DNA of 64,000 nucleotides, from the NCBI GenBank assembly GCA_963665325.3, contig OZ224045.1:1408001-1472000 (forward strand), read 5' to 3'. Position 1 is the stretch's first letter. Each line of letters opens with the position of its first letter. A program made the translations under genes and the position numbers. The DNA comes from Alphaproteobacteria bacterium (GTDB lineage Bacteria; Pseudomonadota; Alphaproteobacteria; Bin95). The notes beneath the pieces were generated by a model. That model was given only the letters and a program-made list of their open reading frames with translations, was not told the origin of the DNA and made no database searches. Shown piece by piece: positions 4,412-19,441 of this stretch.

Positions 4412-5515
4412 CTAAGCGCGCAAGCGCGAGAGCCCGTCTTCCGGCATCCGGCCCCTGTTCTTCTCGGCGAGTAGGGGCCGGACCAGTTCCGCAAATCCGG
4501 TCGCGGCGGCGGCGTGCGGAAAGCCGGACAGACAGAAGGAGTGGCACCCCGCGTCGATGAAGGCCTGGAGCTGATCGGCGCACTGCTCCGGATTGCCGAC
4601 GACCGCGATGCCGGCGCCGGCCCGGACCCTGGTGATGCCGGTCCAAAGGTTCGGCCCGATCATCTCGCCATGCTCGTGCGCCAGTTCCTGCACGCGCCGG
4701 TTCGCTGCCGAATTGAAGGTGTTGTCGATAATTTCCTGGCGGTTCGCATCGGTGCCGTGCGCGACCAGCCTGCGGGCCGCCGTCCAGGCCTCGTCTTCCG
4801 ACTCACGGCACATGATCTGCAGGCGCATGCCGAATCCGATCTCGTCCCCGCGCCCGAACTCCGCTGCGCGCCGGCGGATATCGACGATGTTCTCGGCGAT
4901 CCGCTCCGGCGTGTCGCCCCAGAACAGGTGGACATCCGAGTGCCGGGCGGAAATATCGGCGGCCTGCGGCGACCCGCCGCCGAGATAGAAGCGGGGATGG
5001 GGTTTCTGGTAAATCTCCGGAACGATCGAGCAGTTCTTGAGGGTGTGGAACCTGCCGTCGAAGTCGATGGGCCCTGACGCCGCCCAGAGCCGCTTCATGA
5101 TGGCGACTTCTTCCCCCATCAGGGCGTAGCGTTCCTCCTTGCTGTAGCGGATGCCGTCGGCCTCGAAGTCCGTTTCCGCCTGCCCCGCTATCAGGTTTAT
5201 TGCGAGGCGCCCGCCGGTCATCCGGTCGAAGGTCGCCAGCATCTTGGCCAGGAGCACCGGATTGACATAGCCGGGCTTGGCCGCGACCAGCGGTTTGATC
5301 GTCTTCGTCTTGCCGGCGAGGAAGGCGGCAATGACATAGGCTTCCCAGCAGATGTTGACGACCGGGATCAGGATGTATTCGAACCCGGCATCCTCCGCCG
5401 CCAGGACGATCCGCTCCATCATTTCCGGCGACGGAGCGATCTCGGCCTCCGGATCGCGGAAGGCCGTCGTGTCGCCGTTCGTCGGCAAGTACCAGCCGAA
5501 TTCGAGCTGCCGCAT
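4412..5515 (-). CDS. LLM-class flavin-dependent monooxygenase (SsuD-like)
   Basis: FGWYLPTNGD, AEDAGFEYIL, TFDRMTGGRLAINLIAG and YLGGGS motifs. Confidence 0.9.
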   Translation of the reverse strand: MRQLEFGWYLPTNGDTTAFRDPEAEIAPSPEMMERIVLAAEDAGFEYILIPVVNICWEAYVIAAFLAGKTKTIKPLVAAKPGYVNPVLLAKMLATFDRMTGGRLAINLIAGQAETDFEADGIRYSKEERYALMGEEVAIMKRLWAASGPIDFDGRFHTLKNCSIVPEIYQKPHPRFYLGGGSPQAADISARHSDVHLFWGDTPERIAENIVDIRRRAAEFGRGDEIGFGMRLQIMCRESEDEAWTAARRLVAHGTDANRQEIIDNTFNSAANRRVQELAHEHGEMIGPNLWTGITRVRAGAGIAVVGNPEQCADQLQAFIDAGCHSFCLSGFPHAAAATGFAELVRPLLAEKNRGRMPEDGLSRLRA

Positions 5516-5715
5516 ATGCCTGTCTCCCCGACAGGCAATCTAGCATGGATTTCCCGGCTCCGGCCCCACGATCCGCCGACGGTCGTTGTCGCGAGCGCCA
5601 TGGCGGACACGCGCCGGCGGTTCCGGCCCGGTCGGGCGCGTACGCCGGACTTGCCTTCCTGCCCGCCAGGGTCCTATCCGGTATTTCCCGATGCCATTTG
5701 GGGGAGGCGCGCCCG

Positions 5716-6891
5716 ATGGACAAGCAGACCGACTTGATTGGAAACTGGAGTTTCCCCACCCCGATCCGTTTCGGCGCCGGGCGCATAGGCGAGCTCCCCC
5801 AGGCCTGCCTCGAACTCGGCATCCGCCGGCCCCTCCTGGTCACGGACCCGGGACTCGCGGCGCTGCCCATGGTGAGCGATGCTGTGGAGTCCTGCGTGCA
5901 GGCGGGACTCGCATGCGCGGTCTTCTCCAATGTGCGCGCGAACCCGGTTGAGGCCAATGTCCATGAAGGCGTGAGGACGCTCCGGGATGGGGACCATGAC
6001 GGAATCGTCGCCTTCGGCGGCGGCAGCGCCCTGGATGCCGGGAAGGCGATCGGCTTCATGGCGGCTCAATCGCGGCCCATCTGGGACTTCGAGGACCGGG
6101 AGGACTGGTGGACCCGGGCCGACGAGGACGGCATGGCGCCGGTGGTCGCGGTTCCCACGACGTCGGGCACGGGCTCGGAGACAGGGCGCGCCTCGGTGAT
6201 TACCGACATCCGGACCGAGCACACCAAGCGGATCATCTTTCACCCGCGCATGATGCCGGGGCGCGCGATCCTCGACCCCGAGCTCACCCTGGGCCTTCCC
6301 GCCCACCTGACCGCGGCAGTGGGGATGGACGCTCTCTCCCACAGCCTCGAAGCCTATTCGAGCCCTGTCTTCCATCCGCTGGCGCAGGGCATTGCGCTCG
6401 AAGCCATGCGCCTCGTCCGCGACGCGCTTCCCGTCGCGGTGAAGACTCCCTCCGACCTTGCCGCGCGGAGCCGCATGCAGGTAGCGGCCGCGATGGGCTC
6501 GACCGCCTTCCAGAAGGGGCTGGGTGCGATGCATGCCCTCAGTCACCCCTGCAGTTCGTTGCTCGACACCCATCACGGACTGACGAACGCGGTGGTCATG
6601 CCCTATGTGCTCGTCTTCAACCGGCCCGCGATCGATACGAAGATGGCTGCCCTCGCGCGTTACCTGGACCTGCCGGACCCGTCGTTCTCCGGCGTCCTCG
6701 ACTGGATCCTCGCCCTGCGCGAGGAGATCGGCATTCCGCACACGCTCAAGGACATCGGTGTGGACGAGTCGTTGTCAGCGCGCATGGCGCGCATGGCGGC
6801 GGAGGACCCGTCGGCCGCGACCAATCCGGTTCCGCTCGACGCAGGCGCCCTGGAGCGCCTCTATCTGCGCGCGATCGGCGGCGTGCTGTAG
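5716..6891 (+). CDS. iron-containing alcohol dehydrogenase
   Basis: FGGGSALDAGK, PTTSGTGSE, GMDALSHSLE and HHGL motifs. GGGGAGG SD upstream of ATG 5716. Confidence 0.93.
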   Translation: MDKQTDLIGNWSFPTPIRFGAGRIGELPQACLELGIRRPLLVTDPGLAALPMVSDAVESCVQAGLACAVFSNVRANPVEANVHEGVRTLRDGDHDGIVAFGGGSALDAGKAIGFMAAQSRPIWDFEDREDWWTRADEDGMAPVVAVPTTSGTGSETGRASVITDIRTEHTKRIIFHPRMMPGRAILDPELTLGLPAHLTAAVGMDALSHSLEAYSSPVFHPLAQGIALEAMRLVRDALPVAVKTPSDLAARSRMQVAAAMGSTAFQKGLGAMHALSHPCSSLLDTHHGLTNAVVMPYVLVFNRPAIDTKMAALARYLDLPDPSFSGVLDWILALREEIGIPHTLKDIGVDESLSARMARMAAEDPSAATNPVPLDAGALERLYLRAIGGVL

Positions 6892-14348: not shown

Positions 14349-16664
14349 ATGTTGCACATGATGGAAAATGCGTTCCTCGGAAGCCCCGTTCGCGAAGCGG
14401 CGAAGCTGGCTTTCGCCAATGTCTCCCGGCGGCGGTTCCTGCAGGGCTCGGCGGCCGGTTTCGCCGTCGCCGCCTTCGCCACCACGGCCGAGGGTTTCGC
14501 GCGCTACAAGACCGGCGGCGATGCAATGCCGAACGGCCTGCGCTACGACCCGCACATCTTCGTCTCCATCGACGCCGACGGGACGGTGACCATCGTCGCC
14601 CACCGCTCGGAGATGGGCACCGGCTCGCGCACCTCGCTGCCGATGGTGCTTGCCGACGAGATGGGCGCCGACTGGGGCATGGTGAAGATCGTCCAGGCGG
14701 AAGGCGACGAGGAGAAATACGGCAATCAGGACACGGACGGGTCGCGCTCCATGCGCCACCACATCCAGTCCATGCGCCAGATGGGCGCGTCGGTGCGCCA
14801 TATGCTCGCCAATGCCGCGGCCGAAATGTGGGGCGTGGACGCCTCGGCGGTCTCGGTCGGCGTGCATGAGGTGACGGGCGGGGGCAGGAAAGCCGGATTC
14901 GGCGAACTTGCCGAGGCTGCGATGAAGCAGCCTGTGCCCGAATTCGAGGCGCTGTCCTTCAAGGACGAGTCCGAGTTCCGCTATATCGGCAAGGGCAATA
15001 TCGGCATCACCGACCTGCACGACATCACGACCGGCAAGGCCGTTTTCGGCGCCGATGTGATGTTGCCGGGAATGAAGGTGGCAGCCGTCGCGCGCCCGCC
15101 GGTGGTCGGCGCCGAGGCGAAGAGCTACGACGCAAGCGCGGCCATGGCCGTTCCGGGCGTCGAGCATGTCGTGCCGCTTCCGGCCTCGATCATGCCGGCG
15201 AAGTTCGCCCCGCTCGGCGGCGTCGCCGTCGTTGCCTCCAACACGGATGCGGCGATCAAGGGCCGCGACGCGCTGGAGATCCAGTGGGGCGACAGCCCGC
15301 ATGGCGGCTATACCTCCGAGTCCTACCTGGAGGAGATGCGGGCGACGGCGAAGCAGCCGGGGCAGGTGTTCCGCGCCGAGGGCGACGCTGCGGCGGCGTT
15401 CGCGGGCGCGGCGAAGACCTTCGCGCAGGAATACAGCCAGGCCCATATGGCGCACGCGATGATGGAGCCGCCGGTGGCGGTCGCCAATGTCGCGGACGGC
15501 AAGTGCGAGATCTGGGCGCCGGTGCAATCGCCCTTCGGCGCGCGCGGCGATGTCGCGGCGGCGCTGGAGATGGAAGTCGCCGACGTCAGGGTGAATGTGA
15601 CCCTGCTCGGCGGCGGTTTCGGCCGCAAGTCCAAGTGCGACTTCGTCATCGAGGCCGCCATGCTCAGCAAGAAGCTCGGCATGCCGGTCAAGGTGCAGTG
15701 GACGCGCGAGGACGATATCCGGCACAGCTTCTACCACACCGCCTCGGTGGAGCGGATCGAGGTTGCGCTGGACGGCGACAACAAGGTCACCGGCTGGCGG
15801 CACAACTCGGTGGCGCCGTCGATCCTGTCCACCTTCGCGCCGGACAGCGGGCACCAGTTCTTCATCGAGAGCGGGATGGGGCATGTCGATATCCCCTTCG
15901 AAATCCCGAACCTTTCGGTGGAGAACGGCAAGGCGATGGCGCACACGCGCATCGGCTGGTTCCGTTCGGTCTCGAACATCCCGCGCGCCTGGGCGGTGCA
16001 GTCCTTCGCGTCGGAACTCGCGGCCGAGCTCGGCCGGGACGATCTCGAGGTCATGCTGGAGCTGATCGGCTCCGACCGGAAGCTCGACCCGCCGAAGCAG
16101 GGCTTCCCGGAGAACTTCTGGGACTATGGTGAGGTCTATGACGAGTACCCGATCGACACCATGCGCCTGAAGAACGTCCTCAGGCTGGCTGCCGAAAAGG
16201 GCGGCTGGGGCAAGCAGATGCCCGCAGGCGAGGGCCTCGGACTGGCGGTGCACCGCTCGTTCGTCACCTATGTGGCGACCTGCGCGCATGTGAAGATCGT
16301 GGACGGCAGGATCACCGTTCCCGAGATTCACATGGCGTTGGATTGCGGCTTCGCGGCCAATCCGGAGCGGATTCGCAGCCAGATGGAAGGATCAGCTGTC
16401 CAGGGCATGACCATCGCCCTCTACAGCGGCGTCACCTTCGAGAACGGCGCGGCGGTGCAGTCGAACTACCACGACTACCAGATGGTGCGTTCGGACAACT
16501 TCCCCGAGAAGGTCCACACGCACATCGTGCCGCATCCCTTCTCGGTCCATGCCTCGGGCGTGGGCGAGCCGGGTGTGCCGCCGGTCGCGCCGGCGATCGC
16601 CAATGCGATCTTCCACGCGACGGGCAAGCGCATGCGCGACCTGCCCATGGGCGACACCGTCTGA
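14349..16664 (+). CDS. molybdopterin-binding large subunit, isoquinoline 1-oxidoreductase beta-like, Tat-exported
   Basis: SRRRFLQ Tat motif, plus SEMGTG, LGGGFGRK and GVGEPG motifs. Confidence 0.92.
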   Translation: MLHMMENAFLGSPVREAAKLAFANVSRRRFLQGSAAGFAVAAFATTAEGFARYKTGGDAMPNGLRYDPHIFVSIDADGTVTIVAHRSEMGTGSRTSLPMVLADEMGADWGMVKIVQAEGDEEKYGNQDTDGSRSMRHHIQSMRQMGASVRHMLANAAAEMWGVDASAVSVGVHEVTGGGRKAGFGELAEAAMKQPVPEFEALSFKDESEFRYIGKGNIGITDLHDITTGKAVFGADVMLPGMKVAAVARPPVVGAEAKSYDASAAMAVPGVEHVVPLPASIMPAKFAPLGGVAVVASNTDAAIKGRDALEIQWGDSPHGGYTSESYLEEMRATAKQPGQVFRAEGDAAAAFAGAAKTFAQEYSQAHMAHAMMEPPVAVANVADGKCEIWAPVQSPFGARGDVAAALEMEVADVRVNVTLLGGGFGRKSKCDFVIEAAMLSKKLGMPVKVQWTREDDIRHSFYHTASVERIEVALDGDNKVTGWRHNSVAPSILSTFAPDSGHQFFIESGMGHVDIPFEIPNLSVENGKAMAHTRIGWFRSVSNIPRAWAVQSFASELAAELGRDDLEVMLELIGSDRKLDPPKQGFPENFWDYGEVYDEYPIDTMRLKNVLRLAAEKGGWGKQMPAGEGLGLAVHRSFVTYVATCAHVKIVDGRITVPEIHMALDCGFAANPERIRSQMEGSAVQGMTIALYSGVTFENGAAVQSNYHDYQMVRSDNFPEKVHTHIVPHPFSVHASGVGEPGVPPVAPAIANAIFHATGKRMRDLPMGDTV

Positions 16665-16684
16665 TCCGCCTCCGGGCGGACAGG

Positions 16685-16724
16685 CAAAGGAAAGGGCCGG
16701 CCCCCGCGCCGGCCCTTTTTCTTT
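16685..16724. terminator. intrinsic terminator, probably bidirectional
   Basis: AAAGGGCCGGC / GCCGGCCCTTT stem followed by a T-run, directly after the stop at 16664. Confidence 0.8.
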
Positions 16725-17159
16725 GGGTGGGGCGACGAGGTGGTCTATGTGGACGAGGGATTACGCGGAAGGGCTAGAACAGAGTTTGCGGTTGAGGCCA
16801 CAAACACGAGGATTGGTACTAGGAGCGAGATAGCACCGGGGCCCAGTCTATAGCGTTGGACGACTTCAAAGCAGATTGCCGGTACCAACTCTTCGGTCTC
16901 TTCAAGCGACGTCGGAAGGCAGGCTCCCAGCATTGTGCAAAGAAATTTTTTGCACCGATGTGCGACGGAATTCGTATTCCAGCCCAATGACAGGACTGCC
17001 AGCCGCGAAAATGACTATTGCTATGATGCCATAGCGGTTCGAGGCGTACAGGAGAAGCAGCAAAAACGCCATACCTGTTTCACAACTCACTGAAAACAGG
17101 CCATGCTTGCCAAGCCGGGACAATCCGTTTGCGTCCTGACTCAGCAAGCATTAGAGTGT

Positions 17160-17247
17160 TGGTGCCCCCGGCGGGATTCGAACCCGCAAGACCAGAGCAG
17201 TCAACCGGTTCCAAACCGGATGCGTTTACCAATTTCGCCACAGGGGC
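17160..17247 (-). tRNA. atypical type II tRNA: tRNA-Leu body with UGG (Pro) anticodon
   Basis: Reverse complement folds as GCCCCTG TG GCG AAATTGGTAAA CGC A TCCGG TT-TGG-AA CCGGT TGACTGCTCTGGTCTT GCGGG TTCGAAT CCCGC CGGGGGC A CCA. It is 88 nt with a long variable arm and encoded CCA. Confidence 0.85.
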
Positions 17248-17307
17248 AGGCCCCGCCCCGTTCCGCTTCCAGCTGGTCCGGGGCGAGCGATAGGCATCCT
17301 CCGCCTA

Positions 17308-17835
17308 CTAGCGGTCGGTGCGTTCATTCAGGGTGGCGGCATTCTCGCGGTCTTCCTGTTTGGGGTTCGAGTCGGAGAGCTTGTCTTGAGAGGTCTGGCT
17401 CTCCGACTCCTCGAAAAGTGCTATGGCATCCGGAAGCGGTTTATCGACGAACCACCAAGCGTGGCGTCCATGCCATTTGACTGACTGAAAGCCACAGCCG
17501 CGCTTTGATAAGACGCTTGACAGGTTGACAGCGGGTTTTTCTCCGCCGACGCGAGCGCCAAATTGCGGCATGATTTCAATCAGTTCATGCACGGATAGGG
17601 GATAACCCTTCGCACCAAGGGCCATTCTCGCGCCTTCGAGCATCGTGACCTTCTTGGGCACAATATCTTGTGAAGTGGAAGTGAGTGCATTACTTGGCGT
17701 TGTGTCGTGCCGGAGTCCTAGGAGATCAGTGCGGGCTCTTCGAAGAATCGAAAGCTCACGGTAAAGCGGGCTTTCAGCGAGCTCCGCCTCAAGCTCCTTC
17801 ATCCTTCGCTCAATGGCTGCGAGTGTGTCATTCAT
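17308..17835 (-). CDS. hypothetical protein with N-terminal coiled coil and predicted winged HTH (HARE-HTH-like)
   Basis: LAAIERRMKELEAEL coiled coil, then ARMALGAKGYPLSVHELIEIM...GGEKPAVNLSSVLSK...AWW. Alternative GTG start at 17856. Confidence 0.7.
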   Translation of the reverse strand: MNDTLAAIERRMKELEAELAESPLYRELSILRRARTDLLGLRHDTTPSNALTSTSQDIVPKKVTMLEGARMALGAKGYPLSVHELIEIMPQFGARVGGEKPAVNLSSVLSKRGCGFQSVKWHGRHAWWFVDKPLPDAIALFEESESQTSQDKLSDSNPKQEDRENAATLNERTDR

Positions 17836-17867
17836 AGGGACCACCATCTTTGGCACTTGAATGGCAT

Positions 17868-17896
17868 ATTATCGGCATCAACAATGGTCGTGTCAA
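17868..17896 (-). promoter_or_regulatory. sigma70 promoter for the HTH gene and atypical tRNA
   Basis: Minus strand TTGACA (17896-17891), 17-nt spacer, GATAAT (17873-17868). Confidence 0.7.
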
Positions 17897-18111
17897 TGGG
17901 GAGTGAAGACCAATGGCAAGATTTTTCATTGTCGACAGAAGGTTGCGGAGAAGCCACCCTACACACGCTATGTGACGCGAGAAATGTGAAAATCTGTACC
18001 TTGCAGGCCGGGTCAAAGCAGAATTTCCGCCAACGCTCGGGCCTATGACAGCGGCACGCCCCGGTTTACACTGCTCACCCGGCGCGTCCGGGAAAGGAAG
18101 CCTTCCGAGCC

Positions 18112-19101
18112 ATGGCCCTCGATGCAATTCCGGCGATCGATCTCGGACCCTGGCGGTCCGGCAGTGCCGCCGGCAGGCGGGAGGTGGCCGAGCGGGTTGC
18201 CTGGGCGTGCGAGAATATCGGCTTCCTGATCGTCAGCGGTCATGGCATTCCCCAGGAGGTGATCGACCGCGCCTTTTCGGTCTCGCGGACGTTCTTCGAC
18301 CTGCCGCCCGGGGAAAAGTCGCGCTTCATGCCGGAAGACGGCGTGGCGCCGCGCGGCTACCACGCCGTCGCGACGCGCAATCTGGCGCGCACGCTGGGGC
18401 AGGAGACGCCGCCTGACCTCCGGGAGCAGTTCTTCATCGGCCCGCTTGTCCCGCCCGCGGACCGGTTCGCCCATATTCCGGGCGCGCCCCTGTTCTATTC
18501 CGGCAATATCTGGCCGGCGCATCCCGTCGCCTACCGGGAAGCCCTGACGGAGTTCTACTGCGCGTTCGAAGCCCTGGCCGAGCGCCTGATGGGGATTTTC
18601 GCGGTGGCGCTCGGGCTGCCGGAGGACTTCTTCGACGACAAGATCGACGAGCATTTCAGCACCTGCCCGTCGAACCACTATCCCGTCATCGAGGACGACC
18701 CGCAGCCGGGCCAGCTCCGCTGCGGGGCGCATACCGATTTCGGCAGCCTGACGATCCTCGCCTTCAACGACGCGCCGGGCGGCCTGCAGGCGCTGATGCC
18801 GGACGGCTCCTGGCTCGACGTGCGGCCGGGGCCGGGGCAGTTGGCGGTCAATCTGGGCGACATGATGCAGCGCTGGACCAACGACCGCTGGAAATCCACC
18901 GTCCACCGCGTCGTCAACCCGCCGGAGGAGCGGCGGACGGAAAGCCGGCGCCAGACCATCGGCTATTTCCTGCACCCGAATTACGACGCCGAGATCGCCT
19001 GCCTGGATAGCTGTTGCGGCGCTGGCAACCCGGCGAAATACCCGCCGATCATGGCCGGCGACCACATGCGCGAGAAAATGGAACGCCGGATCGACGGATA
19101 G
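18112..19101 (+). CDS. isopenicillin N synthase family 2OG-Fe(II) oxygenase
   Basis: IPAIDL, GFLIVSGHGI, GAHTDFGSLTIL, VNLGD and STVHRV motifs. Confidence 0.93.
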   Translation: MALDAIPAIDLGPWRSGSAAGRREVAERVAWACENIGFLIVSGHGIPQEVIDRAFSVSRTFFDLPPGEKSRFMPEDGVAPRGYHAVATRNLARTLGQETPPDLREQFFIGPLVPPADRFAHIPGAPLFYSGNIWPAHPVAYREALTEFYCAFEALAERLMGIFAVALGLPEDFFDDKIDEHFSTCPSNHYPVIEDDPQPGQLRCGAHTDFGSLTILAFNDAPGGLQALMPDGSWLDVRPGPGQLAVNLGDMMQRWTNDRWKSTVHRVVNPPEERRTESRRQTIGYFLHPNYDAEIACLDSCCGAGNPAKYPPIMAGDHMREKMERRIDG

Positions 19102-19441
19102 CCCGCATTTCTCACCAGGGTCATGGTCTGCGCGGTGCTGTCGGGCCGGCAGGGTAGGAGAGACGCGCAGCGCATCGTGCGTTGACGCGCGTGGGCGCAC
19201 GGAGCGGGGCATCGGGCAAGCGGATCGACGCACCCTGCCGGCCCGACAGCGCCGCCCTTCGGGTCGCGTCCAGGCGTCCGCCCGCGGCGGCGTAAACGCC
19301 GCCATCCAAACAAACTGCCGCGTTGCGCGCGGCGTCGCGGGCCTCAACCGTAGACTGTGCTACGCTCTTCGGCCCAACTCCTTGCGGAGCGAACGCCTGG
19401 ACAGCGACGCAGGCTGTGACCCTGGTGAGAAATGCGGGCTA
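19099..19441. mobile_element. MITE copy 2 (343 bp including terminal TA)
   Basis: Perfect terminal inverted repeat TAGCCCGCATTTCTCACCAGGGTCA / TGACCCTGGTGAGAAATGCGGGCTA. Lacks one 45-bp internal unit present in copy 1. Confidence 0.9.

Follow-up and report, generated by a model that had tools for sequence, protein, structure and literature searches.

The locus

The subject of this account is a small AT-rich islet in the genome of an alphaproteobacterium of the Bin95 lineage (NCBI GenBank assembly GCA_963665325.3, contig OZ224045.1). It lies within a stretch of 64,000 nucleotides (nt; positions 1,408,001 to 1,472,000 of the forward strand) that is called the window below and is numbered from its first letter. 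The islet holds two genes in tandem: an open reading frame (ORF) for a protein of 175 amino acids (aa), and a tRNA gene whose product has a body of the leucine (Leu) type and an anticodon for proline (Pro). An earlier note, made from the letters of the sequence, had read this arrangement as a self-contained, autoregulated two-component unit akin to a toxin-antitoxin or abortive-infection module. Its descriptive part holds up on re-analysis: the AT-richer islet at about 16740-18050 between GC-rich metabolic genes, the near-consensus TTGACA-N17-GATAAT promoter, the coordinates of the ORF and of the tRNA beyond it on the same strand, the perfect 12-bp inverted repeat in the 3' part of the ORF and the lack of an integrase were all recovered. 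Its functional part fares less evenly, as will be seen. The features are collected in Table 1; everything that belongs to the cassette (promoter, ORF, tRNA) is on the minus strand.

Table 1. Features of the islet (window coordinates) and of the two related loci (coordinates of their own sequences)
Feature	Position	Strand	Evidence and remarks
Inserted islet	16727..18033		1,307 bp; junction alignments with relatives
TGCCATT, upstream copy (candidate operator)	17912..17918	-	15 nt upstream of the -35 hexamer
Sigma-70-like promoter, TTGACA-17 nt-GATAAT	17868..17896	-	11/12 consensus matches
TGCCATT, downstream copy	17860..17866	-	begins 2 nt past the -10 hexamer, where transcription is expected to start
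ORF, 175 aa + stop	17308..17835	-	start ATG at 17835 conserved; stop codon 17310-17308
Hairpin 1, 12-bp perfect stem, 17-nt loop	17369..17409	-	inverted repeat 17369-17380 / 17398-17409
Motif ATGCCGCCRCC	17332..17342	-	DNA alignments of three loci
Hairpin 2, in the 60-nt leader	17252..17287	-	ends 4 nt 5' of the tRNA
Class II tRNA, 88 nt, anticodon UGG (17213-17211), A73, encoded CCA	17160..17247	-	Rfam, ARAGORN
Two hairpins 3' of the tRNA, with a U-run after the second	17060..17151	-	fold, inverted repeat
Insert tail	16727..17059		about 330 nt, no recognizable content
Terminator-like site in the insert tail	16805-16784	-	terminator scan
L001: ORF	6001-6489
L001: tRNA	6594-6694		Rfam 51.9 bits
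L002: ORF	5019-5501
L002: tRNA	5609-5695		Rfam 45.5 bits

The tRNA

The tRNA gene begins exactly 60 nt past the stop codon of the ORF, and ARAGORN labels it Pro(tgg). It scores 59.8 bits against the Rfam tRNA model (RF00005; gathering score 29), inside the span covered by the class II tRNAs of the host (51.6-61.6 bits) and above four of the five host tRNA-Leu (60.1, 56.9, 55.3, 51.7 and 51.6 bits). In the Rfam alignment its cloverleaf has the standard 7/5 geometry, with U27-U43 as the sole irregular pair. The body is that of a tRNA-Leu: a long variable arm (about 16 nt), A73, U8/A14, C2-G71, a D-arm two substitutions removed from that of host tRNA-Leu, and a core (variable arm excluded) identical at 53/73 positions to host tRNA-Leu(CAA). 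The anticodon differs from that closest relative at all three positions. The loop reads UUUGGAA, with U33 and A37 framing the anticodon UGG, which is not a Leu anticodon (NAG or YAA) any more than are the GCC and AGG of the two related tRNAs described below.

Is it then a tRNA-Pro? The NGG anticodon and A73 would fit, but the long variable arm, G1-C72 and A37 do not: the host's three tRNA-Pro are 77 nt long with C1-G72, and their UGG and CGG isoacceptors carry G37. (Loss of m1G37, the 1-methylguanosine at that position, favors +1 frameshifting at CCN codons.) The host genome already has five tRNA-Leu and three tRNA-Pro genes (one of them UGG), which make up all isoacceptors; because these canonical sets are complete, the odd tRNA is surplus. 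A search of 72,556 plasmid records turned up a single similar piece of DNA, an ordinary tRNA-Leu(CAA) of Sphingomonas with 75% identity.

What amino acid such a tRNA might carry can be gauged from the identity elements compiled in PMC9976931. As given there, what leucyl-tRNA synthetase (LeuRS) recognizes is in essence A73 and A14 (U8:A14), and leucylation can do without the anticodon arm; C2-G71 and a discriminator other than G73 (here A73) are anti-determinants for seryl-tRNA synthetase (SerRS); prolyl-tRNA synthetase (ProRS) reads G35, G36 and A73; and glycyl-tRNA synthetase (GlyRS) reads C35, C36, G1-C72 and C2-G71, with U73 in bacterial tRNA-Gly (PMC9976931). 

(Technical notes on tRNA calling: a plus-strand mirror "tRNA-Arg(tcg)" at 17144-17231 has broken stems and draws nothing better than a sub-threshold tRNA-Sec match (25.1 vs 47 bits); it was set aside as a shadow of the real gene. 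Over the whole genome ARAGORN makes 56 calls, nine of which are long (88-99 nt, the mirror tRNA-Arg included), have no Infernal support and are likely false positives; G000 C1:251470-251561, C1:1769646-1769743 and C3:197439-197537 are examples.)

The pair at other loci

The earlier note had staked its reading on a linkage between homologues of the ORF and tRNAs of mismatched body and anticodon, and among close homologues that linkage is found. In 3/3 loci, the window included, a class II tRNA with a Leu-type body and a non-Leu anticodon lies downstream of the ORF on the same strand, at 60 nt in the window and at 104 and 107 nt in the other two, L001 and L002. L001 (= G002:C81) is on a contig of a metagenome-assembled genome of the same genus, in a different context; L002 is on a metagenome contig. 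The three proteins share pairwise identities of 52%, 52% and 60%, both others standing at 52% to the window protein. The flanking genes differ at all three loci: those of the window are metabolic, L001 has an ATP-grasp protein and a small unnamed ORF, and L002 has MobB. With 46 tRNAs in 5.58 Mb, the estimated chance of meeting a tRNA start in the 110 nt that follow a random point is about 5e-4.

The L001 tRNA, 101 nt long, has the anticodon loop UUGCCAA and hence a glycine (Gly) anticodon, GCC; the L002 tRNA has the loop CUAGGAC and a Pro anticodon, AGG. Both have A73, U8, A14, C2-G71, an encoded CCA, a Leu-type D-arm and 7/5 geometry, and their cores match a host tRNA-Leu at 55/73 and 51/73 positions, respectively. 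Among themselves the three odd tRNAs agree at 42-52/73 core positions, about as closely as each agrees with host tRNA-Leu. All three keep a 7-nt anticodon loop with U33 and a purine at 37 (A37), A73 and the encoded CCA, and the 5-bp anticodon stem is preserved by compensatory changes. The tRNA fold is under selection: 10 of the 24 cloverleaf pairs have changed on both sides across the three loci, in a test that rests on three sequences and has correspondingly low power. (Two peculiarities may be recorded here. The L001 tRNA, with a variable arm of about 30 nt, was missed by ARAGORN. In the L002 tRNA, A18 and G55 replace the usual G18-U55 pair, perhaps as a tertiary pair that co-varies.)

How widely is the pair distributed? 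In the genome sweeps the protein family was found in 2/61, 4/401, 2/37 and 2/401 genomes. The close subfamily is present in 2/61 relatives and in 2/37 genomes of the order; besides the window there is none in 401 genomes of the class, and there is none in 401 genomes of the phylum. Apart from the window itself, G002 is the one close relative that these sweeps turned up. Scanning viral contigs with the protein profile gave 22 pattern matches and no relatives, and tblastn with the ORF protein against plasmids and phages gave no match. (The leader pattern was also tried on viral contigs; none of its 8 matches is accompanied by a tRNA according to ARAGORN or Rfam, and they were put down to chance.)

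The protein

The longest open frame at the ORF extends over 17308-17856 (minus strand) and would encode 182 aa from a GTG at 17856. A protein search returned five homologues with 42-57% identity, besides the window's own annotated product; all five start at what is M8 of the 182-aa frame, and this sets the length at 175 aa. (The annotated product, window 17308-17643, minus strand, is just 111 aa long: it starts at M72 of the 182-aa frame and is without the conserved N-terminal helical hairpin that is found in all homologues.) A profile search of 1.84 billion representatives yields 398 clusters at E <= 0.001, 109 at E <= 1e-10 and 9 at E <= 1e-30, and by these matches the ORF belongs to a sizeable unnamed family of 140-190-aa proteins. 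A protein language-model atlas places it among unnamed "hypothetical protein" clusters, in one of which 15% of the members have HARE-HTH.

The predicted layout comprises a helical hairpin (residues 1-43), a disordered linker, a HARE-HTH-like winged helix (about 63-130) and an acidic disordered tail. AlphaFold2 gives a mean predicted local distance difference test score (pLDDT) of 72, with values above 90 over the winged helix, which is made up of three helices and two strands. The Pfam HARE-HTH model (PF05066) gives the window protein 13.9 bits (E = 0.07), where the cut-off is 25.9; it matches 10/36 family members at E <= 0.01, the best at 1.7e-5. The structural matches are winged-helix DNA binders with VIA-align Z values of 6.4-8.1 (values that at this level indicate a common fold, nothing more), chains of the RNA polymerase delta subunit among them (Z 7.7, 7.4 and 6.4); the best Foldseek match has E = 0.03. 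RNA-binding winged helices also match: SelB at Z 6.8 and an Egalitarian-RNA complex at Z 6.5. Prediction of a two-copy complex (residues 8-150) scored 0.19 against a mark of 0.42.

The predicted layout has no catalytic domain; this is a small winged-helix type of protein. It is the product of the sole ORF of the cassette, the neighbors being metabolic genes, and no synthetase paralogue adjoins the tRNA. NCBIfam and PHROGs gave no match, and neither PADLOC nor PHROGs gave any meaningful match to a toxin, antitoxin or defense family. (Weak matches to PADLOC Csx1, E = 0.0058 and 13.7 bits, and to Pfam Csm6-HEPN fall over the N-terminal helices and were read as noise.)

More distant homologues (E = 1e-12 to 6e-4, or 27% identity) are found in G191 (two identical copies), G330, G086 and L003/L004. 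(A side observation: the two G191 copies, L008 on C2 and L011 on C3, have identical match scores and are on two replicons; the L008 copy adjoins an IS1-like transposase gene and may be the passenger of a mobile element.)

Promoter, leader and transcription unit

A promoter scan scores two promoter-like sites in 1.8 kb, against 0.6 +/- 0.8 in shuffled sequence. The promoter ahead of the ORF is bracketed by two copies of TGCCATT, out of seven in the 64 kb. An unbiased k-mer count singles this heptamer out: no 7-mer other than AATGGCA/TGCCATT occurs two or more times in all three of the 150-nt upstream regions, and 0/2000 shuffles yield any such 6-mer or 7-mer. Likewise, 3/5 of L001's copies of TGCCAWT and 4/6 of L002's lie within about 135 nt upstream of the start codon or at it. 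With a copy on each side of the promoter and a predicted DNA-binding fold encoded next to it, autoregulation by the ORF protein at TGCCATT is plausible.

On the coding strand between ORF and tRNA, the scans scored neither a promoter-like nor a terminator-like site at any of the three loci. For this reason, and because the leader and its hairpin 2 are conserved, it is plausible from the arrangement that ORF and tRNA form one transcription unit. Hairpin 2 is present at 3/3 loci (-24 to -25 kcal/mol, z = -1.1 to -2.5), stopping in each case a few bases short of the tRNA, with one compensatory change, G:C to A:U. A further conserved element straddles the boundary between coding and noncoding: the motif ATGCCGCCRCC is coding in the window, where the ORF reads through it, and directly follows the stop codon in L001 and L002. 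It and the sequence after it align at the three loci, nucleotide conservation running on beyond the stop codons of L001 and L002; the leader motif therefore appears to act at the nucleotide level. (An alternative pairing of leader and tRNA, CGCCAC with GUGGCG, was not predicted by RNAalifold and was dropped.)

Hairpin 1, on which the earlier note had hung a possible attenuation or processing of the transcript, sits in the 3' part of the ORF, where the tail is encoded. The RNA fold has an energy of -22.7 kcal/mol (z = -3.1; 0/200 shuffles as stable). L002 has an 11-bp perfect stem in the equivalent place (-24.1 kcal/mol, z = -3.9), with one compensatory double change, U-A to G-C.

The transcription unit likely ends at the two hairpins 3' of the tRNA, which include an inverted repeat (17103-17121 / 17133-17151) and fold at -40.3 kcal/mol (z = -3.0; 0/200 shuffles as stable). 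The consensus terminator scan gave these hairpins no score.

The islet as an insertion

The islet is a true insertion. Its base composition sets it off: in 300-nt windows the GC content is 0.51-0.58 over 16700-18050, against 0.62-0.73 in the surroundings; the insert as a whole is at 0.546, the flanking 3 kb on the left at 0.670 and on the right at 0.693. It sits directly after the terminator of its left neighbor, a gene for a molybdopterin-binding oxidoreductase subunit, and before the upstream region of its right neighbor, a gene for a 2-oxoglutarate (2OG)-Fe(II) oxygenase, both of them conserved metabolic genes. When a 3.7-kb stretch across the islet was compared with the 17 genomes of the genus (16 others), the islet proved to be absent from the equivalent intergenic site in 6/16 congeners, where left and right genes abut: the gap between them is 0-9 nt in G011, G008, G007, G005 and G012, while G016 has an unrelated GC-rich filler of 271 nt at that place (L019 2624-2907). 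(The site may, given that filler, be a hotspot for small insertions.) In the remaining 10/16 the flanks match on separate contigs or far apart, or the right gene matches at paralogue level only. Within its own genome the islet is single-copy.

Public sequencing runs tell a similar story. In runs X1 and X4, contigs that skip from 16724/5 to 18051/3, and thus have an empty site, occur beside the filled form; these matched at 85% likeness, on sides of 36-37 letters, and probably come from co-occurring relatives. (In run X3, a contig covering window 16300-18109 has an identical islet and 10 differences in the flanking gene, at 16373-16604; these may reflect a second strain, or exchange with a paralogue. 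Such a paralogue exists: the final 1.1 kb of the gene for the molybdopterin-binding oxidoreductase, window 15600-16724, is duplicated at G000:C1:1236202-1237326 with 97% identity, and this second copy ends at the same point as the islet's left junction.)

The junction alignments show no target duplication or terminal repeat. Pfam, PHROGs and PADLOC gave nothing above noise for any ORF of the insert, and thus no integrase or other recombinase. The hallmarks of tRNA-linked islands were also looked for in vain: there is no integrase-like ORF, no tRNA or repeat of the tRNA sequence in the relatives' empty site, and no repeat at the junctions. The insert tail beyond the terminal hairpins offers small ORFs of 80-81 aa that have no Pfam, PHROGs or PADLOC match, the 81-aa ORF being without a homologue. 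Recurring as it does in two other bacteria, the cassette is probably mobile. (Farther along, at window 19099-19300, is a dispersed repeat of about 170-200 bp with at least 12 listed copies in the genome, at 76-98% identity, and many more across the genus. It may be akin to a miniature inverted-repeat transposable element or to repetitive extragenic palindromes.)

Comparison with known systems

The nearest known relatives in kind are the allo-tRNAs. These have a hybrid identity and a long variable arm; some miscode efficiently and arrest the growth of E. coli when induced, and their genes are on small accessory loci, often near toxin-antitoxin genes or transposon remnants, as described in PMC5389517. 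Long variable arm, anticodon at odds with the identity of the body and diversity of anticodons are shared with the tRNAs considered here. The differences are in the body: allo-tRNAs have 8/4 or 9/3 geometry, a D-arm like that of tRNA-Sec, mostly G73 or U73 and a serine (or alanine) identity (PMC5389517), whereas the present tRNAs have 7/5 geometry, A73, C2-G71 and the D-arm of tRNA-Leu. Nor do the passages of PMC5389517 covered here, or a text search of a supplement, yield a conserved partner of allo-tRNAs comparable to the winged-helix protein.

Next in line is the tRNAProX-ProRSx pair of Streptomyces and Kitasatospora, in which a hybrid tRNA is likewise genetically linked to a dedicated protein gene, and which is read in PMC11415595 as an encoded mistranslation module. 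An A34 occurs in tRNAProX, as it does in the AGG anticodon of L002. The combination is reversed, however: tRNAProX has a Pro body with a foreign anticodon (alanine, asparagine or threonine; PMC11415595), the present tRNAs a Leu body with a Pro or Gly anticodon. The partners differ as well, ProRSx being a synthetase paralogue that charges tRNAProX (PMC11415595), the partner here a small winged-helix protein with no catalytic domain.

Repressor-controlled toxin-antitoxin and addiction modules offer a likeness of architecture: a small two-gene cassette of patchy occurrence, a repeat-bearing promoter suited to autoregulation, and a second product that is potentially harmful. Here that putatively harmful product is a tRNA, second in the operon, and no known toxin or antitoxin family is matched. 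A tRNA serving as the toxin of such a module is not described in the literature searched, which was covered at the level of abstracts. 

Nematode nev-tRNAs combine Leu-type class II bodies (long variable arm) with Gly or Ile anticodons and receive Leu. The L001 tRNA follows the same logic of body and anticodon; nev-tRNAs, however, belong to eukaryotes and are not known to come with a linked regulator gene or on a mobile cassette.

A Leu-bodied tRNA with a Pro or Gly anticodon tied to a small winged-helix (HARE-HTH-like) protein was not found in the literature covered, subscription papers being incompletely represented in it. Relative to the allo-tRNAs and tRNAProX-ProRSx, as these sources describe them, the pair is a new form of a hybrid-identity tRNA system.

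A possible mechanism

How might such a pair work? The interpretation to which we incline, tentatively and at slightly less than even odds, is that the islet is a horizontally acquired, self-regulated two-gene cassette with a missense tRNA of hybrid identity that is probably charged with Leu. The promoter flanked by TGCCATT repeats would drive the gene of the winged-helix (HARE-HTH-like) protein; the same transcript would probably continue through the conserved structured leader into the tRNA gene; and RNase P together with 3' processing would release the tRNA. With its Leu body and Pro anticodon, the tRNA would most likely be charged, at least partly, with leucine, because LeuRS does not read the anticodon and its known determinants are present. 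Leu-charged, it would insert Leu at the Pro codons CCA and CCG; the tRNAs of the relatives would read CCU (L002) or GGC and GGU (L001) as Leu. (In the host, CCG makes up 62% of Pro codons and GGC 67% of Gly codons.) The protein would most likely bind the TGCCATT repeats, to judge by its fold, its position and the motif, and would hold the operon, and with it the tRNA, at a low level. If that repression were lost, missense decoding would spread proteome-wide, to the harm or possibly the benefit of the cell. The regulator genes do not avoid the codons concerned, and a leak would therefore hit the regulator too. A dual identity, by analogy with tRNAProX, is also possible, since the anticodons offer the main determinants of ProRS or GlyRS.

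One can carry this line of thought further, to an addiction or defense cassette in which the winged-helix repressor restrains a tRNA that, once charged by LeuRS, turns Pro or Gly codons into Leu. The regulator uses the codons read by its own tRNA at invariant residues (5/9 Pro in the window, 7/12 Gly in L001); even a small leak would therefore harm the repressor and so feed on itself, making a bistable switch to proteome-wide miscoding that ends in growth arrest. If so, the switch could fire on phage attack or on loss of the cassette. This extension is a speculation that we think unlikely.

Several findings weigh against the proposal of a regulated missense cassette. The sample is small: three loci, two of them from one genus. 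In the DNA examined around the distant homologues, 0/6 loci (4 distinct genes) have a tRNA nearby, and these loci have no neighbor in common; the protein family as such is therefore not dedicated to tRNAs, and linkage to a tRNA is, as far as these loci tell, a property of the close subfamily. The promoter hexamers are not conserved: a promoter-like site on the coding strand upstream of the ORF was scored in neither L001 nor L002, L001 having no such site and L002 a single one on the opposite strand. Of the earlier note's self-contained unit, the pairing of ORF and tRNA is conserved and the near-consensus promoter is not. Similarly, the hairpin in the ORF, kept with compensation in L002, is degenerate and unstable in L001 (z = +0.96). 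The window protein stays below the Pfam cut-off for HARE-HTH, and DNA binding is inferred from a predicted fold. The ORFs do not consistently avoid codons read by their own tRNAs (Pro 5/9 in the window, Gly 7/12 in L001, Pro 1/10 in L002), which is neutral to mildly unfavorable to a strongly toxic product. Finally, the anticodons carry determinants of their cognate synthetases: G35/G36 with A73 for ProRS and, in L001, C35/C36, G1-C72 and C2-G71 for GlyRS.

Alternative explanations

This last point is the mainstay of a more innocent explanation: the tRNA may simply be charged as its anticodon dictates, with Pro (with Gly or Pro in the relatives), and be a harmless or mildly useful extra isoacceptor with a Leu-derived body, on a small regulator-linked mobile cassette and with no miscoding at all. 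The strength of those ProRS and GlyRS determinants, the free use of the codons concerned in the ORFs and the quietness of the cassette in a complete, healthy-looking genome all speak for it. Yet the body has the determinants of a synthetase, LeuRS, that ignores the anticodon; the ProRS element G72 is missing (G1-C72), A37 replaces the G37 of host tRNA-Pro(UGG) and tRNA-Pro(CGG), and the L001 tRNA has A73 instead of the U73 of bacterial tRNA-Gly. Moreover, no selective reason is apparent for placing three different anticodons on a Leu-type body, or for supplying readers of CCG or GGC to hosts that already have them. We regard this explanation as unlikely. About as unlikely, in our estimation, is a non-translational role, in which the tRNA-shaped element would be a 3' processing or stability signal of the regulator mRNA, an RNA ligand of the winged-helix protein, or a recombination site for movement of the cassette. 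The element does lie in a 3' untranslated region behind a conserved structured leader, and its anticodon is variable (UGG, GCC, AGG). The L002 copy with its A18/G55 has the lower score of 45.5 bits, ARAGORN's model cannot accommodate the variable arm of about 30 nt in the L001 copy, and some winged-helix domains bind RNA, as the matches to SelB and the Egalitarian-RNA complex recall. Many allo-tRNA(UAU) species, moreover, are inactive in translation according to PMC5389517. Against such a role stands the retention, in 3/3 tRNAs, of what translation needs: the 7-nt anticodon loop, U33, the purine at 37, a compensated 5-bp anticodon stem, A73 and the encoded CCA. A processing signal alone would not need these, and for a recombination site both the recombinase and a repeat of the tRNA sequence at the empty site are missing.

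Could the adjacency, lastly, be an accident, the islet a remnant of some larger island and the tRNA a decaying, mutated copy of a tRNA-Leu with no function? The featureless 330-nt tail, the lack of mobility genes and the rarity of the protein family in the genome sweeps might be taken that way. But the pairing recurs at 3/3 close loci between different flanks, compensatory changes have preserved the cloverleaf, the tRNA scores like the host's genuine class II tRNAs, and an anticodon that departs from host tRNA-Leu(CAA) at three positions is not one slip. This explanation is disfavored, and we consider it very improbable.

Significance

Disagreement between body and anticodon is rare among natural tRNAs, and it raises the question whether cells miscode deliberately and how carrier cells survive it. 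A Leu-bodied tRNA with Pro or Gly anticodons, joined to one small regulator-like protein in a cassette of about 0.8 kb, reduces the question to two genes and one promoter, and so makes it testable. There is also a warning for annotation: ARAGORN calls the window gene a plain tRNA-Pro and misses the L001 copy entirely. For the protein family, the pair would supply a first function for the widespread small HARE-HTH-like "hypothetical proteins", which the profile search finds in 398 clusters at E <= 0.001.

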